A DNA stretch of 64,000 nt from Candidatus Hydrogenedentota bacterium (GTDB taxonomy: Bacteria > Hydrogenedentota > Hydrogenedentia > Hydrogenedentales > Hydrogenedentaceae), in the NCBI GenBank assembly GCA_026415215.1, contig JAOAHN010000063.1:778-64777 (forward strand), in the 5' to 3' direction. The notes under the pieces are model-generated. The model was not told the origin of the DNA. It saw nothing but the letters and a program-made list of their open reading frames with translations, and did not search any database. A program made the position numbers and the translations under genes. Below are positions 1 through 63,117 of the stretch, piece by piece (the first letter of the stretch is position 1; each line of letters opens with the position of its first letter).

Positions 1-1199
1 AGGATATTCACACCATTAAAAAAGTTGAGCATACTGCGGAAAAGTTCTTGAGCAAGGGCTATAAAAACTTCGTTGTTCTCGGTATAGGAGGGTCTGCCTT
101 GGGAATCATTGCTCTGAACACAGCACTAAATCCTCCTTTCTATAATCTTTTACCTCAAAACATTAGAAAAGGCCACCCTAAGCTATTCGTAATGGACAAT
201 ATCGATCCCGATACTTTCTCACAGATGCTCTCAATATGCCCTATCGAAGAAACCTTATTCAATGCCATCTCCAAATCTGGCGAAACTGCAGAAACAATGT
301 GCCAATTAATGATTGTCCTTGACATGATTGAGAAAACTGTAGGAAAGGACAAAGTAAAAGAGCACTTAGTATTGACAACAAGTCCCAAAATTGAAAATGC
401 CCCAAAAAGTCTCTTCCACCCAATCGTAGAAAAATATGAACTTACCCAATTTGACATTCCTCTAAATGTAGGAGGTAGATTTTCAGTGTTTTCACCTGTA
501 GGTTTATTTCCCTCGGCTATCTTAGGCTTCAACATTCAGGAAATGCTTGAAGGCTGTGAAAAAATGGACGAGTTATGTTTAAATCCTAACTTGGAACTTA
601 ATCCCGCATATCAATTTTCAGCAATTCATTATCTTCTCGACAAGAACAAAGGTAAAAAAGTATCTGTAATGATGCCATATTCAGACAAACTAAAGGACAT
701 TGCTGATTGGTACCGCCAGCTCTGGGCCGAAAGTTTAGGAAAGAAATATGATTTAAATGGAAATATTGTTTACTCTGGCCAAACTCCCATAAAAGCATTA
801 GGAGTAACAGATCAACACTCTCAAATACAACTATATAGGGAAGGTCCTAACGACAAAATTATAAATATTATTAAGGTAAACAATTTTGATAACATCTTGA
901 AAATCCCCAATATTTTAAGTGAAATATCTGAGCTCGATTACCTTAGAGACAAAACAATGAATGCACTTTTAGCCGCTGAGCTGATAGGGACGCGCGATGC
1001 ATTAGTTTTAAGTCAAAGACCCGTAATAACAATTGAAATAGATGAAGTCAGAGAATACACTGTAGCTCAACTTATGTATATGCTCGAAGTTGCTACTGCT
1101 ATGGCAGGAAAATTGTATGGAGTTAACGCTTTTGACCAGCCAGGGGTAGAAGAAGGTAAAAGAATCGCTCGAGAACTGATGAGAAAAATACAAGTATAA
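1..1199 (+). CDS. pgi: Glucose-6-phosphate isomerase, 5'-partial. The reading frame is open back to the window start, so the TTG at 48 is not the true start.
   Basis: Has the VLGIGGSALG phosphoglucose-isomerase motif and bacterial/archaeal PGI-like length and composition. The frame continues upstream (…DIHTIKKVEHTAEKF…) with no stop. Confidence 0.8.
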   Translation, partial: DIHTIKKVEHTAEKFLSKGYKNFVVLGIGGSALGIIALNTALNPPFYNLLPQNIRKGHPKLFVMDNIDPDTFSQMLSICPIEETLFNAISKSGETAETMCQLMIVLDMIEKTVGKDKVKEHLVLTTSPKIENAPKSLFHPIVEKYELTQFDIPLNVGGRFSVFSPVGLFPSAILGFNIQEMLEGCEKMDELCLNPNLELNPAYQFSAIHYLLDKNKGKKVSVMMPYSDKLKDIADWYRQLWAESLGKKYDLNGNIVYSGQTPIKALGVTDQHSQIQLYREGPNDKIINIIKVNNFDNILKIPNILSEISELDYLRDKTMNALLAAELIGTRDALVLSQRPVITIEIDEVREYTVAQLMYMLEVATAMAGKLYGVNAFDQPGVEEGKRIARELMRKIQV

Positions 1200-27635: not shown

Positions 27636-29175
27636 TTTCATAAGAGAAATATATCACTCGAAAAATGTAATAGACCTATACTCAAATCCTTCTTGTGAAT
27701 ACACTAAAATTACATACGACTTTATTGTAGTCGGTAGCGGGGCAGGTGGAGCAGTAGTTGCTAAAGAATTGTCCGAAATTGGGGCAAAAGTAGCACTAAT
27801 AGAAGAAGGCCCATTACCCTTTCCATTTGAAAAATCTGCCTTTCGTTCTCTATTGAAAATATATAGAGAAAGTGGTTTTACAGGAGTCTTAGGAAAGCCT
27901 ATGATTCCCATACCACTTGGTAGGTGCGTTGGTGGAACTACTACTATAAACTCAGGCACTTGCTTCAGAACTCCGCAAGAAGTTTTTGACAAATGGAATA
28001 ATGAACTTAACCTTTCTACCCTTGTGAATAGCAATTGGGAATATCTCTTCACAAAAGTAGAAAAAGAAATCCATGTCGAAGAAGCAAAATGGGAAGTAAT
28101 GAACAAATCAAGTCATTTCATAAAAAGAATATTCACTACTCATGGATATGAATGTTTGCCATTGCGAAGGAATACAGAAAACTGTCAAGGCTGCGGAATG
28201 TGTTGTTATGTTTGCACTTCAGGTGCTAAAAAAAGTATGGAAGTTAGTTATATCCCTAAAGGGATAAAAAATGGGATGCTTCTTTTCTATAACGCAAAAG
28301 TTACAAGGATTTCATTAGACTCAAACCATAAAAGAATAACGGGAGTAGAAGTAGAAATTGTAAATCCCTCTAATAAGAAGCCTTTAGGAAAGATTAATAT
28401 AAAAGGAGGAGTGGTAATAATCGCATGCGGAGCGCTTCTTACCCCATCCCTCTTACAAAAAAGTGGCATAGCGAGAAATAACACTCACTTAGGAAAACAT
28501 TTAACTATACACCCCGCAAGTAAAATCTCCATAGAATTAGAAGAAGACATATATTCATGGGTGGGAATTCCTCAAGCTTGCTATAGCACTGCTTTGGAGA
28601 AGGAAGGAATAATATTTGAAGGGGTAGCAATGCCTCCTGATTTAGGACCATCTGCTATACCTTTTATAGGAGAAGAACTTGTAAACTACTTCACCAATTA
28701 TAGAAAAATGGCAACCTTTGGCTTCATGATAAAAGACTCTACTGAAGGTTATCTCAAAACACATATAAATAACCAGCCAATCTATTACTATCAGTTAACT
28801 GAAAGTGATGTATCAAGATTGAAAAAAGCGATAACTTTTCTTTCTGAATTAGCTATGAGTGAAAAAACAAAAAAGGTCTATGCTATGGTAAGCAAAAAAC
28901 CAAATGTTTTTTCCTCATTAGAAGATATTCAAAAGTTTATGAAAACGAAACACTCTCCGAATGATTTTGAATGTATGGCTTTTCATCCACTGGGCACATG
29001 TAGAGTAGGAACTTCACCTGAAAATGGTGTCTGTGACGAAACACTTAAGGTATTTGGAACGGAAAACCTGTATATATGCGATGGGAGTGCAATTCCTACT
29101 TCTCTCGGAGTAAACCCTCAACTAACCATAATGGCTTTTGCCACAAGATTAGCAACCATTATAAGCAAAACCTAA
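27628..29175 (+). CDS. GMC-family FAD-dependent oxidoreductase.
   Basis: N-terminal YDFIVVGSGAGGAVVA FAD fold. C-terminal GMC signature AFHPLGTCRVG and GSAIPTSLGVNPQLT. Confidence 0.85.
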   Translation: MNDFIREIYHSKNVIDLYSNPSCEYTKITYDFIVVGSGAGGAVVAKELSEIGAKVALIEEGPLPFPFEKSAFRSLLKIYRESGFTGVLGKPMIPIPLGRCVGGTTTINSGTCFRTPQEVFDKWNNELNLSTLVNSNWEYLFTKVEKEIHVEEAKWEVMNKSSHFIKRIFTTHGYECLPLRRNTENCQGCGMCCYVCTSGAKKSMEVSYIPKGIKNGMLLFYNAKVTRISLDSNHKRITGVEVEIVNPSNKKPLGKINIKGGVVIIACGALLTPSLLQKSGIARNNTHLGKHLTIHPASKISIELEEDIYSWVGIPQACYSTALEKEGIIFEGVAMPPDLGPSAIPFIGEELVNYFTNYRKMATFGFMIKDSTEGYLKTHINNQPIYYYQLTESDVSRLKKAITFLSELAMSEKTKKVYAMVSKKPNVFSSLEDIQKFMKTKHSPNDFECMAFHPLGTCRVGTSPENGVCDETLKVFGTENLYICDGSAIPTSLGVNPQLTIMAFATRLATIISKT

Positions 29176-31880
29176 TTTGTATGTAGGGAGAAAGAATCAA
29201 TCCAAAAAACTGCGGAATTATGAACCGTTGGAACAATCTTAATAGACTTAACCCGACCTAACCATCGAGGATGCGTTCTTAAATCAAATGTATAGATATA
29301 ATAATTCCCGTCAGCTCTAACAGGAATAGTTATTGAATTAGCTTCATCAAAATTCATCATCTTGAAAGCCCAGTAGAGTTTTACTTGAGAAACTCCCTCA
29401 CTAACATTATCTACCCTTAGCCTAATTGTAGCTCTCGGATACTTGAAAGCCAAAATTCCTTCAGTGTCATAGAAGAAAAAATATATAGAGGAATTTTCCG
29501 TGAGGGTCTTTCCCATTAAACTACCATCTACTACCTTCAAGTCATCTATCCCACTTAACACCTTCCATCCAGAAGTGCTATCCTGAAAATCCCAAAAAGT
29601 CCTTATCGGCTCAATCGGAAAATCATAAGGACCTAATCCAACATCTTCAGGAGCTATATTTACGGGCAGTGGTTCAGTATTCGACTTGGCAAAAACATCT
29701 CTTATAGCCTCATACATAGAAAATCCAAACTCGACATTAGGCTCTATATAACTGCCCTCTCCCCATTCATTCAAGGGACCCAATACCACAATGTTATTGT
29801 GATTTTCCTCTGTGTAATGTCTCGCCTTCAACAAAATCTCTCTAAATAACTCCGGAGTTCTACCAGAAATTACTAAAGCTCTTGTTCCATGCCAAGGACG
29901 GGAATCCCACCCTGTTTCTACTAAGGGATAATATATGATTCCCTCACAAAGGTTCCTTTTTTCTACCCACGAGGAATATGCAGTTTGTACTACATCTTCA
30001 TATCTCGCATAGTTAGAAACTGATGACTTCTGTAATGCTTTTTCAAACTCATGATAGTTTGTAAAACAAGCATAACCTTCTTCTACTAAAGTCTTTAACT
30101 CCGATGGAGTTCGGTTATTATTAACCGCCATGAAAACTATTCCATCGAATCCCTTCTCTTTGGCTAATTCCTGCGACCTCGTCAATAAAACCTTTACCGA
30201 GTCAGAGCCACCTAAATCATTTCTCAAATTCTCAGGGGACCAAATACAAACCAAGGGTTTATTACCTAACTTATAATAAGAAGGCAAATTAAAATAATTA
30301 TCGAGCCATTCGAGATTAACTTTTTCCCAATCTTCGGGAGAGTGAGTTTTAGGAGGGTTATGATTAGCCCACATTATAGCTACTTTTAGATAGTCCCTAT
30401 ATTTCGCTTTTTTATATGCTTCAAACCAATGTTTCAAAGATTGCCTTCCCGCAACCCAGTACCAATCAACCAAAAAACACTTTATCCCATTTTCCACTGC
30501 CCATTTAATTTGCCAATCTACACATTCTGGGTTACCCTCATTATAAAAACCTAAAGCTGGTTTTCTAACAGGGGATACGGTCCTAATACAATCCCACTTC
30601 TCCGCTGTGTCCCATCCTGGGAAATAAAAAGCACATAGATCCACCTTAGTCTCAATAGGTTTAGGCTCAGGAACATAATCTACCTCAACCTTCTGAATCT
30701 CTGGAAGAACAGTGATTTCGGCTGTATTTTCAGCTAACAAATCCTCTTTCGAGAAAGCTTGGACTTTTAATAAATGTTTACCATCTTTATCGCTTTTTAT
30801 AATCCATTTAACACTCGTATATTCCCCATACTCTACTATGTAAGGAGGCTCCGGCATTGGCCCTTCAACTATATCTATTCCTTCGGAAACTTCTAATCTT
30901 ACATCTCTAATTTCCTTCTCACCACCACCTATGTTACTAAACCTTGCCATAATTCCAAAAGGCCTGTTAACTCTATTGATTGCGTTCTCAGGTCCAAGGT
31001 AATTAACAGATAATTCAGGTTGCCCTAAAGGCTCTTCTCCTAAACTAATCTTAAATATCTTCATTTTTTGTGAATCAGGCAGTATAAATCCCATTGCTAC
31101 AAGTGTCCCAATCCAATTATTCTCCGAGGACATGTCCAAAGTGATGTAATGTCTTTTGCCATCACACTTATTAAAGGGAACTGAGATAGAGCGAAGACCT
31201 GAAATCTCTTTACTACTCCACAAAAATGTAATTGGAGGAACACAACCATCACTTGAATACTCAATACTTATAAAGGTTCTCTTACCCAACTCCAACTCTA
31301 AAGGTGGAGAAAAAAAATAATTAGAATTTTCTTCAATTTTCCAGCTCGAAATATCACCTTCGGGGAAAATCCAATCCCAAACATTATTAAAAGGAGATTC
31401 TTTACTCCAGGATTTAATAGAAATCTTTTCTATCTCAAAATTTACCCCTTCATACAAGTCTAACCTAATTTTCTTTATTTTACCTTCCTTATGCCAAAAG
31501 GGGAATATGCAAATCTCCTGCCATTCATTAGTATCCTTAACATTAAAGAAAGTAGATTTCTCCTGAGATAATCCGCCGTAAGGACCCTCATCGGTTCCAC
31601 TCCAAAATAACTGGCCAACCCCTCCTTTATCCACCCGGAGTTTCACTTTTAGATATTGATATGGTGTCGCTTCCAAATCCAATTTCTCACAAAGCAAATA
31701 AGGATCATAGCCCGAGGTAAATCCACTCAACTTTCCATCCGAAACTCTAATGTTTGAAATATACGAGTTAGGGACCCATACCGAAATCACATCCTCCTTA
31801 TCAAAAAACCACTCAGGTAATTGAGAAAACACAAGAAGTGAGAACATCAGAATACTCATACCGTAGTAATCTCCCTCCAA
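29172..31880 (-). CDS. Large secreted protein with a WbsX-like (GH99-like TIM-barrel) glycosyl hydrolase/transferase-like domain.
   Basis: N-terminal hydrophobic leader. The central AFYFPGWDTAEKWDCIRTV…GFYNEGNPECVDWQIKWAVENGIKCFLVDWYW resembles the WbsX FYLPQFH…GyYdl.npev…A..yGIdGF.fyhYW block. Confidence 0.45.
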   Translation of the reverse strand: MEGDYYGMSILMFSLLVFSQLPEWFFDKEDVISVWVPNSYISNIRVSDGKLSGFTSGYDPYLLCEKLDLEATPYQYLKVKLRVDKGGVGQLFWSGTDEGPYGGLSQEKSTFFNVKDTNEWQEICIFPFWHKEGKIKKIRLDLYEGVNFEIEKISIKSWSKESPFNNVWDWIFPEGDISSWKIEENSNYFFSPPLELELGKRTFISIEYSSDGCVPPITFLWSSKEISGLRSISVPFNKCDGKRHYITLDMSSENNWIGTLVAMGFILPDSQKMKIFKISLGEEPLGQPELSVNYLGPENAINRVNRPFGIMARFSNIGGGEKEIRDVRLEVSEGIDIVEGPMPEPPYIVEYGEYTSVKWIIKSDKDGKHLLKVQAFSKEDLLAENTAEITVLPEIQKVEVDYVPEPKPIETKVDLCAFYFPGWDTAEKWDCIRTVSPVRKPALGFYNEGNPECVDWQIKWAVENGIKCFLVDWYWVAGRQSLKHWFEAYKKAKYRDYLKVAIMWANHNPPKTHSPEDWEKVNLEWLDNYFNLPSYYKLGNKPLVCIWSPENLRNDLGGSDSVKVLLTRSQELAKEKGFDGIVFMAVNNNRTPSELKTLVEEGYACFTNYHEFEKALQKSSVSNYARYEDVVQTAYSSWVEKRNLCEGIIYYPLVETGWDSRPWHGTRALVISGRTPELFREILLKARHYTEENHNNIVVLGPLNEWGEGSYIEPNVEFGFSMYEAIRDVFAKSNTEPLPVNIAPEDVGLGPYDFPIEPIRTFWDFQDSTSGWKVLSGIDDLKVVDGSLMGKTLTENSSIYFFFYDTEGILAFKYPRATIRLRVDNVSEGVSQVKLYWAFKMMNFDEANSITIPVRADGNYYIYTFDLRTHPRWLGRVKSIKIVPTVHNSAVFWIDSFSLHTN

Positions 31881-32023: not shown

Positions 32024-34879
32024 TTACCGTGGTAGGCAGAATCCATCAATGTCAGCACTATTGTCTCCACAATCTCTCATATATCCACCGATATTGAAGA
32101 ATTGTATCAGTCTTAGTAACTCTGTAAGTTGGATTTTCCAATCCTGGGGACTGTAATCGCTCAAATGCGGTTTACACATTCTTAGGGACAGATCATCACC
32201 TGGCATATATCCATCCTCTGACTGACTCAAAGCACAGTGATAACCTCCAGCGTTGAAAAATTGAATAACTCTCAAGAGTTCACCAAGCTCAATCTTCCAA
32301 TTTCGATTAGTGTCCGCAGAGTGATATGGGGAATCCTCTCCTTCATCATCACCTTCAATACTCCCTTCTGAGACTCCTTCTATTTCACCTTCAAGTATTA
32401 TCTCTCCTTCTAAACCGCCCTCTGAGAGCCCTTCCGTATCACCTTCTACTTCACCTTCATTTACTCCCTCCTCAATCACACCTTCGGATGAACCTTCTTC
32501 GATCCCTTCAGTAGAACCTTCAATAACACCTTCCTCAACACCATCTACAGAACCTTCTATTTCGCCTTCAGATACTCCTTCAGTAACACCTTCAAAAACT
32601 CCTTCTGAGACACCTTCGGGTATTCCCTCGACAACACCCTCAGACACTCCTTCCATCACACCTTCGGAGATCCCTTCTCCTTCTTCATAGCCCTCTACAA
32701 TACCTTCACTCACACCTTCTTCAACAGATCCTTCCAAAGAACCTTCCGCTGTACCTTCTCCTTCTTGAACCATATACGGTTCAAAGTCATAACAATCCAA
32801 TACACCATTTTGATTCAAATCAACCGCATTTAATTGTTCTTGAGTAATGGAAGAATTTAATCCTTGCAGTTCATAAAGAATCAGAACCTCATCTCCATTA
32901 ATATCAATATCTGTGAACAGGTCATATATAACGCTTACTCTACTGAACTCACTTACACTTAATTGCCCGTCCCCATTAGTATCCACAAGATACCATCCTA
33001 ATAGCACTGTATCACTCCACCCAGTAATAGCCTTCAATTCATCCCTTGAAAGCAGTTTATTTCCATCTGTATCTCCAAACATCAAAAGGATATAATAATA
33101 ATGGACAATATCCGTTATATCACAAGGAGCCTCACCTCCATATACCCAACTATAATCCTCCGGACAAGGTGGGCATCCACCCCCGTCTGATGTCACATTG
33201 ATATCCAATGCAGAAGCCACAAATACATCATAATTCTGTGGAGATGTTACATGTGCTGTGTATTCACCCTTATTACAAACATTGTCAAAATCAGGATCAC
33301 CATCTGAGGCAAGATATTGGCCCGCAGTAGTGTCATATTCGTCGATAGTAAATGTTCCCCAGAAGTAAATGTAATCAATAATCTGAACTATTCTATTTAT
33401 GAAAGCTTTCTCGCCAGTGGTTAAGACACCAGCGATTACCGGAATGAATACCGAACTGGAAATAAACTGACCGATAAAAGGCAAAGAATTCCATTTAGTC
33501 TGGGCAGTTACTCTATTATTCATATAAGAATTCCTGACACAACAGAAAATTGGTAAATCAGGATGTGCAAGAATATAGTCTAACAATCTGGCTTGAGCAA
33601 CATCCGCTATTCCATTTTCGTCAATATCTGCGGTATCAGGATTAAGTCCTAACCAAGAAGCAAGGTTGTATAAGCTTCTTAGCGAGCTCTCAAACTGTGA
33701 ACTCACAGGGGAATTACTACATGTACTCCAACACCATTCAGCATAACAAGATTGGGGGAGCGGACCTATCAGATCCCAACAATCGAGATAGCCATTATCA
33801 TCTATATCTATTTCGTCAAATTTAGCCTGGGTTATCTTGCTACTCAACTGTCTTATCTCCGTCAAAGTTACTTTATTATCCCCGTCTGCATCTAAGTGTT
33901 GAGGTAATAAGCCACCTAAACGATTACTATCAACAAATTCTTGGTAGGACATATAGCCATCTCTATCTTTATCAATCAACCACCACCCCAACTCAAGTAA
34001 AATTCCATTAACGAACGCCTTTAGTTCATTCTTCGAAAGTTTTCCATCTGCATTGGTATCCCCGAAGAGCACAAGCAGAGCGAAGTAATTCTCATTAGAC
34101 CTCATATCACACTGGGGCCCCGGGGTTCCTTCTCCCTCACCAGTGCCCTCACCTTGCCCACAGTCAGGACAGCCCCCGTAATAGTCCCTTACATTAGGAT
34201 TTACTGCAGCGGATACAAAAGCATTAAAATCATCGGGTATCGTTAAAACCCAAGCTCTATACTCACCAATATTACAGACTCTATCAAGGTCAGCATCACC
34301 CTTAGCATTGAGATACACTATGTTTGAACCATCAAGCTCTAAGAGAGAAAGATCTGGCAAGTCAGGAATTATCCATTTTAACGCACTTAGTATCGTATTT
34401 ATGATTTCTTCATTTCCCATCGTTGCTAAAGCGGCAAAAAATGTCTTTAGATTTTCTAAATCAGGAGGCTCCCCAAGATAAGATGGCCAACCCGCATTAA
34501 TAGCCATAGCTAAAGCTTCGACCTTTACCCTATTCGCTACATAAGACCAATATATACAATTCCGAGTAGAAATCGCATTAAGAGGATTCATCTTCATTAT
34601 AGTGTCAAATAATCTTGCTTGAGCAACATCCTTCATTCCGTCAAAGTCAAGATCTAAGTTGTCCGGATTACCACCCAATAGAGGGATCTTCGTATACAGC
34701 TCACGCATCGAGTTTTCAAAACTCTCTGTATAAATTAGCCCAGGTATAATGTTATTACAAGGAGGAATATTACAATAATCTGGTTCTTGGGACTGCGAAT
34801 ATACATAGCCTAAATTAAACAAAATAAAAACTACTAATATATACATCACCCTGGGAGTATATGTAACACTTACTTTCAT
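32024..34879 (-). CDS. Large secreted Ca-binding repeat protein with multiple EF-hand/dockerin-like loops, two copies of a roughly 175-aa module, an acidic EG-repeat tract and a C-terminal twin ELLRVIQFFN module.
   Basis: Signal/TM leader. Canonical 12-residue loops DTNADGKLSKNE, DKDRDGYMSYQE, DADGDNKVTLTE, DTNGDGQLSVSE. An (EG[VIS]xEG)n tract of about 140 aa. C-terminal NWKIELGELLRVIQFFNAGGYHC … DWKIQLTELLRLIQFFNIGGY. Confidence 0.7.
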   Translation of the reverse strand: MKVSVTYTPRVMYILVVFILFNLGYVYSQSQEPDYCNIPPCNNIIPGLIYTESFENSMRELYTKIPLLGGNPDNLDLDFDGMKDVAQARLFDTIMKMNPLNAISTRNCIYWSYVANRVKVEALAMAINAGWPSYLGEPPDLENLKTFFAALATMGNEEIINTILSALKWIIPDLPDLSLLELDGSNIVYLNAKGDADLDRVCNIGEYRAWVLTIPDDFNAFVSAAVNPNVRDYYGGCPDCGQGEGTGEGEGTPGPQCDMRSNENYFALLVLFGDTNADGKLSKNELKAFVNGILLELGWWLIDKDRDGYMSYQEFVDSNRLGGLLPQHLDADGDNKVTLTEIRQLSSKITQAKFDEIDIDDNGYLDCWDLIGPLPQSCYAEWCWSTCSNSPVSSQFESSLRSLYNLASWLGLNPDTADIDENGIADVAQARLLDYILAHPDLPIFCCVRNSYMNNRVTAQTKWNSLPFIGQFISSSVFIPVIAGVLTTGEKAFINRIVQIIDYIYFWGTFTIDEYDTTAGQYLASDGDPDFDNVCNKGEYTAHVTSPQNYDVFVASALDINVTSDGGGCPPCPEDYSWVYGGEAPCDITDIVHYYYILLMFGDTDGNKLLSRDELKAITGWSDTVLLGWYLVDTNGDGQLSVSEFSRVSVIYDLFTDIDINGDEVLILYELQGLNSSITQEQLNAVDLNQNGVLDCYDFEPYMVQEGEGTAEGSLEGSVEEGVSEGIVEGYEEGEGISEGVMEGVSEGVVEGIPEGVSEGVFEGVTEGVSEGEIEGSVDGVEEGVIEGSTEGIEEGSSEGVIEEGVNEGEVEGDTEGLSEGGLEGEIILEGEIEGVSEGSIEGDDEGEDSPYHSADTNRNWKIELGELLRVIQFFNAGGYHCALSQSEDGYMPGDDLSLRMCKPHLSDYSPQDWKIQLTELLRLIQFFNIGGYMRDCGDNSADIDGFCLPR
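32330..32760 (-). repeat. Coding low-complexity tandem repeat (acidic EGVSEG-type tract) inside 32024..34879.
   Basis: Reiterated ccttc/accttc units in the DNA, translating to …EGVSEGIVEGYEEGEGISEGVMEGVSEGVVEGIPEGVSEGVFEGVTEGVSEGEIEG…. Confidence 0.7.
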
Positions 34880-34966: not shown

Positions 34967-35440
34967 TCAACATCTGATTGGGAAAACTAACTTATTAGAA
35001 TCTTGTACATGAAAGGTTATATGGAAACCTTCAACATCGCCTTTCTTCTTGCTGATTACCGAGAAGTTAAAACAAGCCCCAAGTAAACTTATATCTCGAA
35101 CTCTGACCAATCTAATTCCACTCGATTGTCTGTCTGTAAGATGCTTATTGTATTCATCTTTAATAATTACCGCCTCATAAACCTTAATATTCTTCCGAGT
35201 AGAATCCCTATTAGCCCCTCTCGCCAACTTCGAATAGAGAGCACATAAGTCCCTTACATCTACCCATCCATCATCATTAACATCATAAATAAAGAAATTT
35301 GCAACTATCTCATATCGAAGGATATGAGAGACCAACCTTTCCCATTCTCCTACTGAGGGTTTAAAACCCACATGAGAATCACAAACTCCATATATTAGCA
35401 AACATACCACCACACTTATTTTCAATAATGACTTAAACAT
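34967..35440 (-). CDS. Small secreted protein with a single dockerin/EF-hand-like repeat.
   Basis: Signal peptide. YDVNDDGWVDVRDLCALYSKL fits a dockerin-type Ca loop plus helix. Confidence 0.4.
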   Translation of the reverse strand: MFKSLLKISVVVCLLIYGVCDSHVGFKPSVGEWERLVSHILRYEIVANFFIYDVNDDGWVDVRDLCALYSKLARGANRDSTRKNIKVYEAVIIKDEYNKHLTDRQSSGIRLVRVRDISLLGACFNFSVISKKKGDVEGFHITFHVQDSNKLVFPIRC

Positions 35441-35522
35441 CTTTATCCTAATTTTGTATAATTATTATAACACAAAATCTCGTAAAAGATATCGTGTACT
35501 CACTGTATTCAGAGTGTTGTTT

Positions 35523-36905
35523 ATGCAACAAAGATTACAACAAATTCCGCAACTAAGGCAAGAGCTAAGGCTATCTCAAACTCAAATCCAGTCATTGGAA
35601 ATTCTTCAGCTTCCCACACCAGAGTTAGAAACCCGATTAAGAGAAGAAACTGAAAAAAATCCTTTTTTAGAAATTGAAGAGAAGAGTAGCCTATCTTATG
35701 ATGACATAACAACCATTGAAGAAAAAGACCCCGAACAATATTACTCCAAAGATTTTAACAGAACACTGCCCTTAGATTTGAGTAAAAATCGTCACTCAGA
35801 ACTACCTGTTAATATTGTTTCAGTGACCCCTTCTCTGAAACAGCATTTAATAAAACAACTTAGATGTACCACTGAAGAACCCAGAATTCTCCAGATAGGC
35901 GAGGCGATAATAGCAAATATAGACAGAAAAGGCTATCTCTCAGAAACTGTGGAGGATTTAGCTCAGTCACTTAATGTAGGCAAAGAGGAGGTAGAAAAGG
36001 TCTTAGAAATTATACAGAGTTTCGAGCCTCCAGGCGTAGGTGCAAGAAATCTTAAAGAATGTCTTCTCATTCAGGCTAAAATTCTTTTTCCTGACAACTT
36101 TCTTTTAATAGAACTATTAGACAATCACTACGACGAGTTTATAAATTCACAAAAAAATAAAATAGCTAAAAACTTAAAGATCACACTGGAAGAAGTAGAA
36201 AACATCTACAAACTTATTAAAGAAAACTTTAATCCTCATCCAGGATACCAGTACCCAGAACCACCTGAGTATATATTCCCAGATCTTATAGTTAAAGAAT
36301 TAGAGGATGGCAAATATACCGTAGAGTTAGTAGATGAATACCTCCCCAAGGTTAAGCTGGTTGAAACTTTATCTCAAGAAGATATAAAAAAACTACCCTC
36401 CGAAGAAAAAGAAAAAGTAAAAGAGTGGAAAGAAACCGCTAAATCACTTATAAGAAGCATAGAATTAAGGAAAGATACCCTATTGAAAGTGGGGGAAGAA
36501 ATTGTAAGGAGCCAAGAAGGTTTTATGAAAAAGGGCCCCTCACACTTAAAGCCTATGACTTACAAAGACATAGCCCAAAAGTTAGGGGTTCACGAATCAA
36601 CAATATCCAGATGCATTGCAGGAAAGTGGATTGCTACACCTCAAGGGATATATGAGCTGAAATTTTTCTTCACGAGAGGACTCGAATCAGCTAAAGAGGG
36701 AGAAACAGTATCCGCTCAGGCGATAAAAAATTTAATATTAGAAATTGTTAACCAGGAAAATAAAGCAAAACCTCTTAGCGACGAAAAAATTGCCGAAATG
36801 ATAGAAAAACAACTCGAAGTAAAAATAGCTCGAAGAACTGTTGCAAAATATAGAGAAGAACTTAAAATTCCCAACTCATCTGATAGAAAAAGAATCCAAA
36901 AATAA
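35523..36905 (+). CDS. rpoN: RNA polymerase sigma-54 factor.
   Basis: Gln/Leu-rich region I (MQQRLQQIPQLRQELRLSQTQIQSLEILQLPTPELE…NPFLE) and a C-terminal RpoN box ARRTVAKYRE. The start is at the ATG at 35523 rather than the tracked 35454. Confidence 0.9.
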   Translation: MQQRLQQIPQLRQELRLSQTQIQSLEILQLPTPELETRLREETEKNPFLEIEEKSSLSYDDITTIEEKDPEQYYSKDFNRTLPLDLSKNRHSELPVNIVSVTPSLKQHLIKQLRCTTEEPRILQIGEAIIANIDRKGYLSETVEDLAQSLNVGKEEVEKVLEIIQSFEPPGVGARNLKECLLIQAKILFPDNFLLIELLDNHYDEFINSQKNKIAKNLKITLEEVENIYKLIKENFNPHPGYQYPEPPEYIFPDLIVKELEDGKYTVELVDEYLPKVKLVETLSQEDIKKLPSEEKEKVKEWKETAKSLIRSIELRKDTLLKVGEEIVRSQEGFMKKGPSHLKPMTYKDIAQKLGVHESTISRCIAGKWIATPQGIYELKFFFTRGLESAKEGETVSAQAIKNLILEIVNQENKAKPLSDEKIAEMIEKQLEVKIARRTVAKYREELKIPNSSDRKRIQK

Positions 36906-58473: not shown

Positions 58474-61107
58474 CTAATACTCATACGCACCTATGTCGTA
58501 ATCAGATCCGTCCCCCCGTGGAGCTGAAATTCCGTCTCTACCTCTCATGTTATTCTCAATATCGAAAATCACGGAGCCCCACTCTTCACTACTGGTATCA
58601 AATCCCGCATCCACACACGGCGAACTACTGGAAAGCCTTAAGTTGCCACCTTGAGGAAAAACAAACAGAGGGTCTACTGAAATATTGCCTACCCCCTGCT
58701 TCTCTACCTGTAGATTACAATAATAGAATTCAGGTTCTCCTCCCAACGAATATACTCCAGCACCTGAATTTTCCCAAATTATAGTATTCCCAAATCTTAA
58801 ACCTCCGTAATAATTGAACACCGCCCCACCCTGAATATTTGAAAGCAGATCAGTCATATTCCCATAAAAGGTGCAGTTCGTAACGATTATATTTTCACAA
58901 AAATCGAGGTGAAGCCCCCCTGTTCGTTCAGTCGAGTAACTGAAATCATATGACTGGTTACGGAAAACAACCGAATTTATTAACTTGCCGGAGCTTCGTG
59001 TCAGGAATCCCATACCACCGCTTGCCCGAGAATAGCCTGGATGGTCATTAGTCGAAACCGAATTATTTCTAAACTCAGAACTTTCAATTCTGAAGCTTGA
59101 ATACCACAAATAAATAGCACCACCTAATGCTCTTGCTACCGCTCCATAGTAATTTCCATTTATCCGCCCATCACCTATCCCTTCTGCGGAGCATGAGTTT
59201 AGATAAAAATAACTATTTTCCAAAGATAATGATGAATTATAAGAGTAAATTGCGCCTCCGCCCGCTGTCGCATATACATTTCCTATCGAATTTTTCCATT
59301 CACACCGAGCGTTAGCCACATTTCTCTCAAATCTACACCTGACAAAATTCGCAACGCTATCAGATACATAAACCGCACCACCATAATTGTAAACAGAGGC
59401 TGTCCCATTCAGTTCAACCCTGTTTTCAATAAAATGGCAGTCATACGCTGATAGCTTTCCGCTCAGAATAGCTATCGCCCCTCCAGCTCCTTCTGCTTTA
59501 TTCTGGAAGAATTTGCAATTTCTAACAGTCATCCTCTTTCCAGGGATGTATAATCCCCCTCCGTCCGAAGCGTCTAAGTATATACCATTAAATCGGGCAA
59601 TACCCCCCTTAATAACGAAACCATCTATCTCACAATAATTATCCCCTAATAAAACATGCCACGCTGGTTCACCTGCTCGAGATTTGCTCCCATCGATGAC
59701 TGTTACATTCGTATTAAAGTTCCTTTGGGATAAACTAATCTCATTTCCACTAAAACCACCATATAATTTAACAAGTTCTCTTAGGACAAGTGCCCCGTAG
59801 GGATTATTTCTCACTTCGTCGTAAATACCACCTGCAACCCAAACTTCTCCTCCACCTAACTCATAAGCCTTATTTATCCCCTCCTGAATTGTAGTATAAG
59901 CAGAATCCCAAGTTAATCCATCTGGTTCAACTTCTTTATTTACATTACTTTTCTTAACATGTATTCTCACGCCCTCATGTATTTCAATGTAATTCTCTCT
60001 AACTATGGTATCTGTGCCAGCAGTAGTAGTCACACTTAATCTTACGGTGTAAACTCCAGGCTGAGTATATATATGAACTGGATCTCTCTGAACACTAAAA
60101 GAACCATCCCCAAAATTCCAAAGCCACTGGGGATCTGTTCCGTTTCCTAACCTACTTTCATCGGTAAACTCCACTTCCGTACCTACTAGAGTCCTGGTTG
60201 GCGATGCGGAAAAATTTGCTTTAGGGGGATAAGGCAAAGCACTATATATCCTAATCCAACCTGCCAATATGCTCAAAGGATACAAAATCCCCTGAGGGTA
60301 TGTGGTTGATAATATATTTTCACTATACAAAGAGTATATATCTCCGAAGTCTACTTCCTCAGATATGTGAAATCTAATAGCCATAAGAAGCCCTGAGGAC
60401 ATTCCAGTTGTAGAGGTACCAGAAATAACAACTCTCAACCTCCCAGGTACTATCTGGGAAACTGTTAAACTCCTACCTGTATTAAATATGACAAGCCCAG
60501 GAATAGACTCTACATAATTTAGTTTTCTATGGTTGTAGAGTAAATCAAACTGAATAGAATCGAGGAAAACATCTTTTGTATCTAATGTAAACGGGACAGA
60601 CACATCAGAATTAGGAACTGCATCTTTTCTATCAATAACCACTCTTGCATATTGATATACTTCCCCCTCTCCCTCAGGTGAGCCTTCCAATTCTCCTTCT
60701 TCATTATTAGGGGGGCATAGAATAGGTCTGAAGCCATCTTCAGTCCCTGAGTATGGCTCGTAACCACAAGAATTATAAAATTGTATTAGTCTCAAAATCT
60801 CATTAAGAGTAATACGCCACTTATTATTTTCCTCAAAATCACTGTCATGAGGTTCACAACTCTGATCACCCGGCCCGGGGTTATACCCATCTTCCCCATT
60901 GGGGTCACAATGATAACTCTTTACATTATAGAATTGAATTACTCTAAGAAGTTCAGATAAATTTATTTTCCCATCTCTATCTTTATCAGCCGAATGATAT
61001 TCGGTTTGGTCTGTATATCCATAAATACTAATTACTATAAAAAAAATAAAAACAAACAATATACACTTTTTTCCTCTACTACTCATTTTGTTTTCCTTTA
61101 TCAGCAT
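58474..61107 (-). CDS. Secreted protein with an N-terminal dockerin/EF-hand twin module, a PKD domain and a right-handed parallel beta-helix (pectate-lyase fold).
   Basis: Signal/TM. DKDRDGKINLSELLRVIQFYN … NKWRITLNEILRLIQFYNSCGY. PKD WNFGDGSF…HIYTQPGVYTVRLSV. PbH1-like repeats (NCKFFQNKAEGAGGAIAI, GGAVYVSDSVANFVRCRFERN, GGAIYSYNSSLSLENSYF). Confidence 0.7.
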   Translation of the reverse strand: MLIKENKMSSRGKKCILFVFIFFIVISIYGYTDQTEYHSADKDRDGKINLSELLRVIQFYNVKSYHCDPNGEDGYNPGPGDQSCEPHDSDFEENNKWRITLNEILRLIQFYNSCGYEPYSGTEDGFRPILCPPNNEEGELEGSPEGEGEVYQYARVVIDRKDAVPNSDVSVPFTLDTKDVFLDSIQFDLLYNHRKLNYVESIPGLVIFNTGRSLTVSQIVPGRLRVVISGTSTTGMSSGLLMAIRFHISEEVDFGDIYSLYSENILSTTYPQGILYPLSILAGWIRIYSALPYPPKANFSASPTRTLVGTEVEFTDESRLGNGTDPQWLWNFGDGSFSVQRDPVHIYTQPGVYTVRLSVTTTAGTDTIVRENYIEIHEGVRIHVKKSNVNKEVEPDGLTWDSAYTTIQEGINKAYELGGGEVWVAGGIYDEVRNNPYGALVLRELVKLYGGFSGNEISLSQRNFNTNVTVIDGSKSRAGEPAWHVLLGDNYCEIDGFVIKGGIARFNGIYLDASDGGGLYIPGKRMTVRNCKFFQNKAEGAGGAIAILSGKLSAYDCHFIENRVELNGTASVYNYGGAVYVSDSVANFVRCRFERNVANARCEWKNSIGNVYATAGGGAIYSYNSSLSLENSYFYLNSCSAEGIGDGRINGNYYGAVARALGGAIYLWYSSFRIESSEFRNNSVSTNDHPGYSRASGGMGFLTRSSGKLINSVVFRNQSYDFSYSTERTGGLHLDFCENIIVTNCTFYGNMTDLLSNIQGGAVFNYYGGLRFGNTIIWENSGAGVYSLGGEPEFYYCNLQVEKQGVGNISVDPLFVFPQGGNLRLSSSSPCVDAGFDTSSEEWGSVIFDIENNMRGRDGISAPRGDGSDYDIGAYEY

Positions 61108-61110
61108 CTC

Positions 61111-63117
61111 TCAACGGGAATTACACCCACACTTCACTCCCGTAATGTTTTTTAGGTACTCTTCTAATTCTTCACGGGAGATTTTTCCATCTCTATCTTT
61201 ATCTATCTCGAGCAATAAGTCTATAGGAATTTGAGGATACCTTTCAACTACCTCTTCGTAGCTTAAATACCCATCACCATCTATATCGCAATAAGAAAAT
61301 GTAGACCACAGCAAAAGAGCAAAATTTCTCTTCTCTTTCTCCGTTAGAGCTACTGATTTTTTATAAGACACATCCAAAGCCAAACGACTGGCAAAGGGAA
61401 TGTATACCTTAAGCGACTGGGGTTTTATATAGCCATCTACATCTGTAAATTCTATCTCTACCCACCCCATCTCAAGGATTACCACTTCCTTAGAATTTCT
61501 CCATAATTCAAATCCTTTAGGTCTCCACTTGGCCCCTTTATTCACTGCATCCGGTGGAAATATGCTAACCATTAACTCACCAACTTTTATAAAGGTCTCT
61601 ACCACAACCTTGTTCTCACCCGAATCAATTTCTACATCTATATAATCATTTTTAAAATCCAAATACCGAGAATAAACCCATCCCTGAGGTTGATAAAAGA
61701 AAACTCTATAAACCCCAGCTGACAATCCCGTTACACTCTCTCCACTGGAACGCCAAGCCTCATCCCCCTCAATCTTCCATTGGGCCCCACTAATCACGGC
61801 CTCCTCTGGTTCAATAATAACGGTAAGAGAAGCAAAAACTTCATCTTCTCCCTCTCCTTCTATTATTCCTTCACCTTCTCCCTCGAGAATACCCTCTAAC
61901 ACACCTTCTCCCTCATACGGAGACTCACCCTCACCACACCATACACAACCACCACCATCACTGAACTCTTCAACACTCAACACCCTCCTCTTATAGCCTT
62001 CCAAACCCTCACTCGAATCCATCGCATATCTATACTCACCTAAATTACACACCCCATCCATATCAGCATCACCATACATACTCAACCAACACGAACTACT
62101 CACATTAAATAAAGCCATATTCGGCAACGGCACCTCCAATGGCAATTCATCTATCATACCCACCAACATCTCCACTGTAGACCTTTCTCCAACCGTCATT
62201 ATCCCTGCCACTACTCTCTCAAACCTCGCACGATCCACTATCAAAAATATCACCGGTTGGCTCGCCGCTATCTCATCTGCATATAACTTCGCGCTATCCA
62301 AATTAACTACATAAGTAGCTACAACACAACAATATATTCCCATATCCCACCTACTCAATACACCATCAAGTATCCACGCCTGAGCTACATCCAGCACCCT
62401 ATTGCCATCCAAATCCGCTTTATCCGGGTCCTCTCCAAATAACTCGTAAAACCACCTCAAATCAGATTCAAAACTACTACTCACCTCCCCACTATTACAA
62501 CCAACCTCAAGACAATTATCTATATTACAAGGATCAAACCAAAATCCTCCCTCTCCTTCTCCTTCTGCAACACCCTCTCCCTCCTGTGTCCCCTCAATAC
62601 CTCCCTCATTCACACCTTCCCCCGATCCTTCAGAAGAATCGCAGACACAAACTAAGTTTGCAACAACTGATTCAGTAGTTATATTAGGTCCATCAGTACG
62701 ATACATACCGTATGAAGTCACTGCCAAAGGAGAAGTATATCCTTCTTCTACATTTATCTTGAAAGAAAATTTAAAAGGAAAATTAGGTATGAATATCCAG
62801 GCAAACTCAAATCTTCCTCTTGTTCCCCCAGACGGATAAATAGGTGGGAGTGCACCGGAAACTAACGATACAAAGCTACACTGCTGAGGAACTTCCGTCA
62901 CCAATCCAAGGGCAGTAACAGTGCTTGAACCAGTATATATAAATTCTACCTCCACTACTAAATCTTTGCCAGGTGTGTACTTATTACCGTTAGAAATATA
63001 CCCTTCCCCACCTATAGTCTGTGAAATTTTTAAATCTGTTTCAGCGAAACTCCAAATCGAGAAAAACAACACCACGAATAGGAAAACCAACACAAATTTT
63101 TCATATATACTATACAC
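61111..63117 (-). CDS. Secreted paralogous Ca-binding repeat protein with one copy of the 175-aa module, EG tracts, a repeated beta-rich domain and a C-terminal EF-hand pair. It lies 3 nt upstream of 58474..61107 on the same strand.
   Basis: Leader peptide. SFESDLRWFYELFGEDPDKADLDGNRVLDVAQAWILD … DADMDGVCNLGEYRY … GGGCVWCGEGE. C-terminal DIDGDGYLSYEE and DKDRDGKISREE canonical EF-hand loops. Confidence 0.65.
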   Translation of the reverse strand: MYSIYEKFVLVFLFVVLFFSIWSFAETDLKISQTIGGEGYISNGNKYTPGKDLVVEVEFIYTGSSTVTALGLVTEVPQQCSFVSLVSGALPPIYPSGGTRGRFEFAWIFIPNFPFKFSFKINVEEGYTSPLAVTSYGMYRTDGPNITTESVVANLVCVCDSSEGSGEGVNEGGIEGTQEGEGVAEGEGEGGFWFDPCNIDNCLEVGCNSGEVSSSFESDLRWFYELFGEDPDKADLDGNRVLDVAQAWILDGVLSRWDMGIYCCVVATYVVNLDSAKLYADEIAASQPVIFLIVDRARFERVVAGIMTVGERSTVEMLVGMIDELPLEVPLPNMALFNVSSSCWLSMYGDADMDGVCNLGEYRYAMDSSEGLEGYKRRVLSVEEFSDGGGCVWCGEGESPYEGEGVLEGILEGEGEGIIEGEGEDEVFASLTVIIEPEEAVISGAQWKIEGDEAWRSSGESVTGLSAGVYRVFFYQPQGWVYSRYLDFKNDYIDVEIDSGENKVVVETFIKVGELMVSIFPPDAVNKGAKWRPKGFELWRNSKEVVILEMGWVEIEFTDVDGYIKPQSLKVYIPFASRLALDVSYKKSVALTEKEKRNFALLLWSTFSYCDIDGDGYLSYEEVVERYPQIPIDLLLEIDKDRDGKISREELEEYLKNITGVKCGCNSR

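Follow-up and report, generated by a model that had tools for sequence, protein, structure and literature searches.

Four secreted proteins encoded in a 64,000-nucleotide stretch of DNA (referred to here as "the window") share calcium-binding and other modules in shuffled order, and their sequences suggest that they are calcium-loaded modular proteins that are assembled or tethered on or near the cell surface in a calcium-dependent way, a reading that we regard as roughly an even call. An initial annotation had proposed a lineage-specific, calcium-dependent, dockerin-like extracellular or cell-surface modular system. We retain this main idea, but not its statements that a cohesin is lacking, that an enzyme system is present and that one protein carries a pectate-lyase-type beta-helix. 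The window comes from the chromosome of an uncultured member of the Hydrogenedentota near Candidatus Hydrogenedens; an origin from a mobile element or island was ruled out by the housekeeping context (UvrA, ClpB, RpoN and a GHMP-kinase/IspE-like gene are neighbours) and by synteny conserved across genomes. Anaerobic digesters and sediments widely harbour Hydrogenedentota, which, to our knowledge, have no cultured representative and whose cell surface is essentially undescribed.

Results

Two conserved gene pairs

The four open reading frames (ORFs) listed in the initial annotation are all present, on the minus strand:

32024..34879, minus strand: A951, ORF of 951 aa, secreted (leader-like N-terminus)
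34967..35440, minus strand: B157, ORF of 157 aa, small secreted protein (leader-like N-terminus)
58474..61107, minus strand: C877, ORF of 877 aa, secreted (leader-like N-terminus)
61111..63117, minus strand: D668, ORF of 668 aa, secreted (leader-like N-terminus)

Inspection of charge and hydrophobic core bore out the leader peptides claimed for all four, as in each a short, mostly positive stretch at the start leads into a hydrophobic core of 12 residues (Kyte-Doolittle 2.7-3.7). The genes had also been called a paralogous family, but blastp ruled out whole-gene paralogy: only modules are common, and the genes are made of shuffled modules. B157 has no module in common with A951, C877 or D668 (module HMM six-frame scan of the window) and is tied to them only via one dockerin/EF-type loop and the conserved gene order. 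No recognised catalytic domain was found in any of the four proteins by Pfam and NCBIfam scans.

The four ORFs are two conserved gene pairs, B157-A951 and D668-C877. Orthologs of A951 with identical architecture occur in Ca. Hydrogenedens genomes; the order B157 then A951 is kept in six loci (L001, L002, L004-L006 and L009), and small ORFs similar to B157 lie upstream in three others (L003, L008 and L010). A951 is 67-78% identical to its orthologs versus 43-46% for the neighbouring RpoN, which, together with the conserved synteny, indicates strong constraint on A951. In the other pair, C877 starts 3 nt downstream of the D668 stop codon. This tandem is kept in L034-L036 and L039-L042, and domain order and neighbours are unchanged in the C877 orthologs from L034 (81% identity) and L035/L036 (57%). 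Promoter and terminator scans gave nothing above shuffled background.

From the N-terminus, A951 consists of a signal peptide, module X, four EF-hands, a second module X, four further EF-hands, a Glu/Gly spacer and a YHSAD module. The order in C877 is signal peptide, YHSAD, Glu/Gly linker, cohesin, PKD, GGAI-repeat region and a choice-of-anchor-Q-like cap. D668 has a signal peptide, an Ig-like domain, a Glu/Gly tract, module X, a second Glu/Gly tract, two small beta domains and an EF-hand pair, and carries neither a YHSAD module nor a membrane anchor.

A cohesin in C877 and a decayed dockerin in B157

Three regions of C877 follow its N-terminal YHSAD module and linker:

60220..60660, minus strand: cohesin, C877 150-296 (Pfam Cohesin, PF00963, 25.5 bits versus a cut-off of 24.1)
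59989..60228, minus strand: PKD, C877 294-373 (PKD_4, PF18911, 58.9 bits; PKD, PF00801, 43.2 bits)
58477..59973, minus strand: GGAI/N-rich repeat region, C877 379-877 (sequence repeats)

It had been stated that no cohesin-like partner is visible in the window; the profile evidence contradicts this and identifies a real cohesin domain in C877. Scanned alone, the region matches the Pfam model at E 1.6e-5 over model positions 3-113 of 139; the score is barely above the cut-off, and the domain is not listed when the whole 877 aa are scanned. A profile of 3 orthologous sequences, searched against the PDB, retrieved 5nrk_A and 5nrm_A (E 9e-6), 4ums_A, and 6kgc_A/6kg8_A (E 0.025). These first five matches all come from cellulosome entries: three are named scaffoldin/cohesin chains, and the other two, labelled 'Endoglucanase', are chains of ~140 residues from the entry for a cohesin-dockerin complex. 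The Pfam scores are 43.9 bits for the homolog in L084 and 38.6 bits for that in L046, and the 3-sequence HMM links them at E-values of 1.5e-16 and 7e-6, respectively. A metagenome scan with the C877 cohesin region alone found no relatives, and these homologs surfaced indirectly via a scan for YHSAD. The six-frame scan with module HMMs found one cohesin in the window, and thus no multi-cohesin scaffoldin; no membrane-anchored receptor was found in the window.

The PKD domain claimed for C877 was confirmed, and PKD-containing PDB chains match it at E-values down to 5e-11. The beta-helix of pectate-lyase type that had been assigned to the C-terminal half fared differently: C877 379-877 matched no Beta_helix/pectate-lyase family (PF13229, PF12708 and relatives) at E <= 10, and a 3-ortholog profile of the GGAI region matched no PDB sequence. 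Matches were confined to Chlam_PMP (11.6 bits) and, for the 55 residues at the C-terminus, choice_anch_Q (19.3 bits; cut-off 25), for which one C877 ortholog reaches E 1.4e-6. With neither HMM nor PDB support, the pectate-lyase identity was dropped. The GGAI-type repeats suggest that the region is probably a right-handed beta-helix.

B157 retains part of a dockerin:

35207..35296, minus strand: surviving dockerin-type loop and helix, B157 49-78, YDVNDDGWVDVRDLCALYSKL (Dockerin_1 match at 52-78; strict loop at 53)

The protein scores 15.9 bits against Dockerin_1 (PF00404; cut-off 22.9), with one repeat left, not two. Two dockerin repeats are present in the orthologs from L008, L009 and L010 (37.4, 28.7 and 35.9 bits, Pfam), and alignment with these indicates that B157 keeps the second repeat only. 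B157 is, on this alignment, a half-decayed classical dockerin; the family is dockerin-bearing and the window copy is degenerate. Of the dockerin candidates, the B157 orthologs pass PF00404, whereas B157 itself and the YHSAD modules do not. Having lost half its dockerin, B157 may no longer bind a cohesin.

The YHSAD module

Two copies of this module are found in the window:

32033..32335, minus strand: YHSAD double-repeat, C-terminal, A951 849-949 (HMM i-E 8e-41)
60718..61008, minus strand: YHSAD, N-terminal, C877 34-130 (copy used for the structure model)

A951 848-943 and C877 33-116 are 52% identical (blastp, E 1e-20). The module has ~95 aa and is internally duplicated, with a calcium loop, a helix and a beta-hairpin in the confidently predicted structure; its halves align with a score of 83 (z = 13 versus shuffles). 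The model contains two helices with a loop ahead of each, the second loop being 1-2 residues longer than a canonical EF loop.

Proteins with YHSAD have a single copy, which either forms the very C-terminus or follows immediately on the signal peptide and usually has a Glu/Gly spacer ahead of it; a spacer of the A951 type also precedes it in unrelated proteins. In digester metagenomes it is carried by hundreds of varied large secreted proteins, whose record names include Hydrogenedentota, Kiritimatiellia and Candidatus Vecturithrix. The passengers are mostly adhesin-type repeats (LRR, PKD, Flg_new_2, PASTA, Kelch) and not carbohydrate-active enzymes, while some YHSAD proteins elsewhere have peptidase, sulfatase-maturase-like or chitobiase-associated domains. 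Among proteins with module X and among small cohesin proteins, YHSAD swaps position with C-terminal transmembrane (TM), Cys-TM-basic and LPXTG-like tails; of three tandem cohesin proteins in L046, one ends in YHSAD, one in a TM helix and one in a Cys-TM-basic tail.

YHSAD matches no described family in Pfam, NCBIfam or PDB sequences. The best structural matches of the model are dockerins, but they are weak, and the Foldseek similarity is without significance. None of 52 YHSAD modules matched PF00404 at E <= 0.01, and hhalign against real dockerins aligned 23 columns with 33% probability. The tandem duplication of a calcium loop and a helix, i.e. the dockerin plan, is nevertheless present.

Module X

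The second shared module has three copies:

34127..34780, minus strand: module X copy 1, A951 34-251 (HMM i-E 8e-59; blastp versus D668, E 2e-19)
33131..33742, minus strand: module X copy 2, A951 380-583 (copy used for the structure model)
61903..62535, minus strand: module X copy 3, D668 195-405 (HMM i-E 2e-61; blastp)

The copies are 28-36% identical to one another (blastp, E 2e-19 to 3e-29); for copy 2, the blastp comparison places the module at A951 387-583. Module X is Cys-rich and ~200 aa long, and its confidently predicted structure is all-alpha, with two flanking EF-type loops and no relative among the solved structures compared in the PDB. It has no match in Pfam (2025 copy), NCBIfam (2026) or PDB sequences. 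The initial annotation was therefore right in pointing to two conserved modules without a named-domain identity: module X and YHSAD are both real, and we found no description of either in the literature on Hydrogenedentota. An exhaustive HMMER search turned up 79 proteins with module X. At the C-terminus, module X proteins can have YHSAD or, in its place, a TM/basic tail. A word-indexed homolog search returned nothing for module X or the C877 cohesin region; in view of the HMMER result, this reflects the sensitivity of the index and not absence. Module X appears to be confined to Hydrogenedentota.

EF-hands, acidic spacers and an Ig-like domain

Five features of A951 and D668 complete the set:

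33743..34102, minus strand: EF-hand block 1, A951 260-379 (four loops ~28 residues apart; Pfam EF-hand_1, _6, _7 and _8)
32777..33112, minus strand: EF-hand block 2, A951 590-701 (Pfam EF-hand_5 at 632-648; EF-block HMM i-E 9e-61)
61135..61314, minus strand: C-terminal EF-hand pair, D668 602-661 (Pfam EF-hand_7 at 606-655)
32327..32764, minus strand: acidic Glu/Gly spacer, A951 706-851 (EGxxEG-type repeats, tract detection)
62632..63045, minus strand: Ig-like beta domain, D668 25-162 (NPCBM_assoc / DUF11 / CARDB class, via homologs)

A strict EF loop was defined as the 12 residues D-x-[DNS]-x-[DNSG]-G-x-hydrophobic-x-x-x-[DE], and counts were compared with 2000 composition-preserving shuffles. 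A951 has five such loops, D668 three, and B157 and C877 one each, versus 0.000-0.016 expected; the shuffle maximum was 0 or 1 in 2000. The strict loops start at residues 274, 303 and 358 in block 1 of A951, whose fourth loop, DADGDNKVTLTE, was recognised by direct reading of the sequence, at 633 and 687 in block 2, and at 611 and 639 in the D668 pair, which PDB EF-hand proteins match at E 3e-4.

At the gathering cut-offs of five Pfam EF-hand families (PF00036, PF13405, PF13499, PF13202 and PF13833), A951 has scores of 64.8, 63.8, 49.1, 43.6 and 38.1 bits and D668 of 43.1, 43.2, 35.4 and 26.7 bits, so that both pass the HMM thresholds; C877 (17.7 bits) and B157 (14.6 bits) miss them. The EF-hand blocks in A951 and D668 are genuine, and calcium binding by them is predicted. 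The claim that all four proteins carry multiple canonical loops is accordingly true of A951 and D668, but not of C877 and B157, which are sub-threshold with a single strict loop each. Tract detection likewise placed the acidic EG-x-x-EG tracts, said to be common to all four, in A951, C877 and D668 but not in B157. No protein of the four matched Pfam TSP_3 at E <= 1, leaving a thrombospondin type 3 identity, which had been suggested as a check, without a match.

A951 has ~13-14 predicted calcium sites and is strongly acidic (D+E 17% versus K+R 5%). Its Glu/Gly spacer contains a degenerate 12/24-nt tandem repeat at 32553-32665. NCBIfam matches of the EF blocks to lanmodulin and XopAW (28 and 40 bits) are far below the cut-offs (135 and 120) and were rejected, as were FliH and serine-rich matches on the Glu/Gly tract, which are low-complexity artefacts. 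The window copy of D668 25-162 has no Pfam match; its jackhmmer homologs (five repeats in L116) match NPCBM_assoc with 82 bits and DUF11 with 30 bits.

Discussion

The shuffled modules, the cohesin and the decayed dockerin together give the look of a non-cellulosomal surface protein assembly. Non-cellulosomal cohesin and dockerin modules are found across bacteria and archaea. In the scheme that we propose, YHSAD would be a dockerin-derived or dockerin-like anchor with which passenger domains are held at the envelope in a calcium-dependent manner. C877 might act as a small adaptor/scaffoldin that is anchored via its YHSAD and whose cohesin captures a partner; candidate partners would be a classical dockerin of the B157 type or the YHSAD of another protein. 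A951, with its ~13-14 predicted sites and no catalytic domain, may have a structural or adhesive role as a surface protein held off by its 150-residue acidic spacer. A bolder and decidedly tentative version is that YHSAD is an enlarged new class of dockerin for membrane- or envelope-anchored cohesins, and module X a new Hydrogenedentota-specific, extracellular, calcium-dependent fold. If this were true, YHSAD-cohesin pairing would define a system of surface display common to several phyla of uncultured anaerobes, with hundreds of adhesins and enzymes carried per community. As cohesin and YHSAD occur in one polypeptide, their mutual binding, if real, would need self-association to be explained.

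That same fusion resembles the joining of cohesins to anchoring modules in scaffoldins, and fits a reading, to which we give perhaps a chance in three, in which YHSAD serves as an anchor or sorting domain and has nothing to do with cohesins: its ligand might be a glycan, LPS or S-layer component of the envelope, bound in a calcium-dependent way like that of SLH or other cell-wall-binding modules, or a dedicated machine for export or attachment might recognise it, as happens with the T9SS C-terminal domain. The C877 cohesin would then be one passenger among many and pair only with classical dockerins, which are present in genomes that carry YHSAD. Such an anchor would be in keeping with a terminal, single-copy module behind a spacer that has very diverse passengers, is exchangeable with TM and sortase-like tails, and is without significant sequence or Foldseek similarity to dockerins. 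However, dockerins are still its best structural neighbours, its tandem loop-helix duplication follows their plan, and no candidate glycan-binding feature or dedicated export/attachment machinery was seen beside the genes.

A cellulosome-like multi-enzyme complex for polysaccharide breakdown, with the C877 beta-helix as a lyase and neighbouring glycosidases recruited to it, could draw on the cohesin and dockerin-type modules, on the PKD and GGAI-repeat region with its possible polysaccharide lyase fold, and on the enzyme-related domains in some YHSAD proteins elsewhere. The glycosidases reported nearby are also there in part: a GH2 beta-galactosidase was confirmed and, together with a WbsX-like protein, adjoins A951 in conserved gene order. 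However, the six-frame scan found no YHSAD, cohesin or module X in either protein, and the "surface-enzyme system" seen in the initial annotation has no support, given this result and the absence of recognised catalytic domains from the four proteins. With no Beta_helix or pectate-lyase HMM match, a single cohesin in the window and mostly adhesin-type passengers, we consider such a complex improbable. We judge equally improbable that the proteins are soluble calcium buffers or matrix proteins that hold cations in extracellular polymer, with terminal modules serving folding or stability and nothing being assembled. The acidity, calcium loops and 150-residue Glu/Gly tract of A951, the lack of catalytic domains and the weak, far sub-threshold NCBIfam likeness to calcium-binding effectors and lanmodulin would suit that role, but it leaves unexplained the cohesin and dockerin domains as well as the strict terminality of YHSAD, its hundreds of unrelated passengers and its exchange with membrane anchors.

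Both unannotated domain families have confident predicted structures and merit domain-database entries. If YHSAD is a cohesin- or envelope-binding anchor, its sequence would be a simple marker by which to recognise surface proteomes in several candidate phyla; assembly of the cohesin-dockerin type would reach well beyond cellulosomes, and a new orthogonal calcium-dependent binding pair might become available for protein engineering.

The proposed calcium-dependent surface assembly can be compared with several known systems. Its likeness to cohesin-dockerin systems lies in the cohesin of C877 and the type I dockerins of the B157 family (two calcium-loop-helix repeats), both recognised at Pfam level, and in YHSAD as a terminal, one-per-protein tandem of calcium loop and helix with a flexible linker ahead; C877, joining a cohesin with an anchoring-type module, recalls adaptor scaffoldins. 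Unlike in cellulosomes, the linkers are Glu/Gly-rich and not Pro/Thr-rich, the host belongs to a candidate phylum and is not a cellulolytic Firmicute, and neither a several-cohesin scaffoldin nor dockerin-bearing carbohydrate-active enzyme cargo was seen within the window. The EF-hands of A951 and D668, which pass Pfam, have the 12-residue loops, the Glu/Asp at position 12 and the ~28-residue pairing of calmodulin-like proteins, but they lie in large, secreted, modular surface proteins, and the loops of module X and YHSAD are in non-EF-hand contexts.

Choice-of-anchor domains are extracellular and have alternative C-terminal sorting signals. The alternative ends (YHSAD, TM, Cys-TM-basic or LPXTG-like) of module X proteins and small cohesin proteins, and the weak choice_anch_Q match of the C877 cap, are reminiscent of these NCBIfam families; however, module X matches none of the models, and the "anchors" here include a folded domain of 95 aa, predicted to bind calcium, in place of a sorting peptide. 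As a terminal modular tag on many unrelated passengers within one genome, YHSAD is also like SLH and T9SS C-terminal domains, although it has no sequence match to such families in Pfam or NCBIfam. SLH domains form helical bundles and T9SS C-terminal domains beta-sandwiches, whereas the predicted fold of YHSAD consists of helix and hairpin repeats with a calcium loop.

Mosaic organization of the four proteins

Judged from sequence, the four proteins under study are EF-hand-rich mosaics with signal-peptide-like N-termini, and the window encodes both a cohesin and a member of a dockerin family. All four open reading frames (ORFs) reported in the initial annotation are present on the minus strand. 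They are named here by length in amino acids (aa); module X is a shared domain of about 200 residues, and YHSAD, named after the N-terminal motif of its double repeat, is a module of about 95 residues.

32024..34879, minus: A951, 951 aa; signal peptide, module X, four EF-hands, module X, four EF-hands, 150-residue Glu/Gly spacer, YHSAD
34967..35440, minus: B157, 157 aa
58474..61107, minus: C877, 877 aa; signal peptide, YHSAD, Glu/Gly linker, cohesin, PKD, GGAI-repeat region
61111..63117, minus: D668, 668 aa; signal peptide, Ig-like domain, Glu/Gly tract, module X, Glu/Gly tract, two small beta domains, EF-hand pair

Each N-terminus combines a short, mostly positive n-region with a strongly hydrophobic 12-residue core, and this charge and hydrophobicity are consistent with the leader peptides proposed for all four. 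Strict 12-residue EF loops number five in A951, three in D668, and one each in B157 and C877 (shuffled sequences predict 0.016 or fewer). With the Pfam EF-hand families, A951 (up to 64.8 bits) and D668 (about 43 bits) score above the curated cut-offs, and C877 and B157 below them. The notion of multiple calcium loops per protein holds for A951 and D668 but not for the other two, and the acidic EG tracts attributed to the set are present, as Glu/Gly tracts, in A951, C877 and D668.

The two shared modules that had been noticed are real, as both were delimited by blastp among the four proteins: module X at residues 34-251 and 387-583 of A951 and 195-405 of D668 (28-36% identity), and the YHSAD double repeat at residues 848-943 of A951 and 33-116 of C877 (52% identity). 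No further copies of module X, YHSAD, the EF block or the cohesin turned up when the whole window was scanned in six frames with HMMs. B157 has no module in common with the other three proteins. The four genes are thus not the paralogous family originally envisaged, but mosaics of modules, of which B157 shares none.

Orthologs of A951 range from 861 to 1158 aa, some with a third EF-hand block. The DNA encoding the A951 spacer carries a degenerate 12/24-nt tandem repeat (window 32553-32665; 66-75% matches), which may allow variation in spacer length. Through homologs, the N-terminal domain of D668 was assigned to the NPCBM_assoc / DUF11 / CARDB Ig-like class. Another locus (L116:7761-12323) encodes a protein of more than 1500 aa in which five tandem copies of this Ig-like domain (NPCBM_assoc / DUF11 class) occur alongside CARDB and CarboxypepD_reg domains. 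Both D668 and its ortholog P0127 carry a C-terminal KCGC motif (window 61111-61131).

A cohesin in C877

The initial annotation saw no cohesin in the window. However, when residues 145-292 of C877 were scanned alone, they matched Pfam Cohesin above the cut-off (25.5 bits against 24.1; E 1.6e-5), a match absent from the listing of the whole-protein scan. A profile made from the window copy and two orthologs matched the PDB chains 5nrk_A and 5nrm_A (E 9e-6), followed by three chains named cellulosomal scaffoldin or cohesin, and an HMM from the same three sequences reached metagenomic homologs that score clearly as Pfam cohesins (L084 with 43.9 bits across the whole model, L046 with 38.6 bits; L numbers denote homologous loci from other genomes or metagenomes). 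The order YHSAD-cohesin-PKD recurs in L039, L041, L042, L066 and L084, plus a truncated ORF of L040, and in L084 the PKD is followed by weak GGAI-type (Chlam_PMP) repeats, as in C877. Pfam also bears out the PKD domain of C877. The proposed pectate-lyase-type beta-helix is unsupported, as the C-terminal 500 residues gave no Beta_helix or pectate-lyase match, only weak Chlam_PMP and choice-of-anchor-Q matches.

B157, a decayed dockerin protein

A small secreted ORF lies immediately upstream of the A951 ortholog in nine loci (L001-L006 and L008-L010). In its more distant members (L008, L009 and L010) there are two DxNxDGxxDxxDL repeats, and their Pfam Dockerin_1 scores (28.7-37.4 bits) lie above the cut-off; B157 and its close relatives retain the second repeat only (15.9-17.4 bits with the same model). 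B157 is accordingly a decayed dockerin protein. In all aligned proteins of this family (window 34967-34969; L001-L006 and L009) the last residue, or one adjacent to it, is Cys (...LRC).

YHSAD, a candidate anchoring module

YHSAD is an internally duplicated unit of about 45 residues (the halves score 83, z = 13) with the consensus H-S-A-D-x-N-x-D-x-x-I-x-L-S-E-L-L-R-V-I-Q-F-Y-N-x-G-G-Y-H-C...E-D-G-Y-x-P-G. The first loop has the canonical EF form, and the second exceeds it by one to two residues. A word-indexed search returned 143 matches, none with a Pfam label over the module; those with a named source come from Hydrogenedentes, Kiritimatiellae/Kiritimatiellia and Candidatus Vecturithrix MAGs. 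For YHSAD, all proteins that this search retrieved were shorter than 180 aa, and for module X and the cohesin it retrieved none despite long homologs in the exhaustive library, meaning that an empty result from it does not equal absence. At least 537 relatives were found in a metagenome scan, with dozens of separate contigs within single digester assemblies.

Among 94 ORFs from 80 retrieved loci, YHSAD occurs once per protein, mostly at the extreme C-terminus and otherwise mostly directly after the leader peptide (mid-protein in two), usually with an EGxxEG spacer N-terminal to it. The passengers are domains characteristic of extracellular proteins: Flg_new_2, PASTA, LRR, PKD, GLUG, FGE-sulfatase, M26 and trypsin-like peptidases, Kelch, Beta_helix, CotH and FG-GAP. 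YHSAD therefore follows the plan of a dockerin, yet cannot be classified as one.

The 79 proteins carrying module X have one of two C-terminal ends: YHSAD, or a hydrophobic helix plus basic tail that follows a conserved Cys or an LPxTG-like motif. In L046, from a high-GC organism unlike that of the window, three tandem small cohesin proteins (L046:1113-3690, metagenome contig NPIG01002590.1) have three different C-terminal ends: YHSAD, a plain TM helix, and a Cys-TM-basic tail. Such interchangeable ends are expected if YHSAD does the job of a membrane or sortase-type anchor. YHSAD is an unannotated, widespread, terminal module that is swappable with membrane anchors, and we infer that it is a calcium-dependent anchoring module, possibly an enlarged dockerin. 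The ORF upstream of the L046 trio (23..1060) contains thrombospondin-type DxDxDGVPD repeats.

Module X

All three copies of module X keep an N-terminal CxxxxC, a DxDxNGxxDVAQA loop with a helix after it, a CC pair at the centre, the canonical EF loop GDADxDGVCNxGEY and, towards the C-terminus, GGGCPxC; these conserved cysteines suggest disulfides. Neither Pfam nor NCBIfam nor the PDB sequences gave a match. Among 1.84 billion representative proteins, an exhaustive HMMER search recovered only 79 carriers at E <= 1e-3, and a scan of one genome per species gave 33 loci. All of these come from records under the names Hydrogenedens, Hydrogenedentes, Hydrogenedentota or Hydrogenedentales, or from MAGs labelled "uncultured bacterium" or "uncultured Nitrospirales bacterium" that contain the same genes. 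The best locus match is 87% identical, and that of Ca. Hydrogenedens terephthalaticus 67%, which makes the source organism of the window a Hydrogenedens relative. Module X is an unannotated domain that seems confined to a single phylum. The Nitrospirales-titled MAGs (binchicken, SRP216815; L002, L003, L009, L011, L015, L016, L020, L023, L024, L028, L032 and L033) hold genes of the Hydrogenedens type whose identity to the window reaches 82%, and their titles are probably wrong taxonomic labels.

Possible roles of the proteins

C877 might be a small adaptor, itself anchored, that recruits a partner via its cohesin; either the YHSAD module or a classical dockerin is a candidate partner. A951, in which no catalytic domain was recognised, could be a structural or adhesive calcium-loaded surface protein displayed on its acidic spacer. 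A cellulosome-like enzyme complex would also employ cohesins and dockerins, but this reading is weak because neither a catalytic domain nor a tagged glycosidase was found. In principle, cohesins and dockerins outside cellulosomes are nothing new. Known families explain the system only in part; it fits best as a variant of cohesin-dockerin-type surface assembly, and two domain families, module X and YHSAD, deserve description.

Genomic context

The four genes lie in an ordinary chromosomal setting (GC about 37%), with neighbours that include genes for UvrA, ClpB, RpoN, a GHMP-kinase (IspE-like), a GH2 beta-galactosidase, a GMC oxidoreductase and the following protein.

29172-31880, minus: WbsX-like protein, 902 aa; C-terminal half matches WbsX family PF14307 (104.7 bits)

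The order GH2, rpoN, B157, A951, WbsX-like and GMC oxidoreductase is kept in Ca. Hydrogenedens genomes, with 67-78% identity for A951, 43-46% for RpoN and 57-66% for the other neighbours. The D668-C877 tandem, 3 nt apart, is kept in L034-L036, where an HD-GYP response regulator and a ceramidase-like gene again lie downstream, and in L035 the GHMP-kinase gene lies directly upstream, as in the window. All four are core genes under constraint and not parts of a mobile island.

The response regulator (window 56930-58465, plus strand; GAF and HD-GYP-type domains) is convergent to C877 and occupies the same place in L034-L036; its constant position makes it a possible regulatory partner. In Ca. Hydrogenedens genomes, too, the WbsX-like protein is encoded next to A951 on the downstream side; its long N-terminal region is unannotated. 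A 644-aa ORF (48477-50411, minus) has no Pfam match at E <= 0.001. The listed TTG start of rpoN (35454) is 13 nt from the divergent B157 start (35440; window 35440-35523). The sequence with which RpoN proteins typically begin (MQQRLQQIPQL...) is reached only at residue 24 of the listed ORF, so the true start is probably near 35523, which would leave about 80 bp between rpoN and B157 for divergent promoters.
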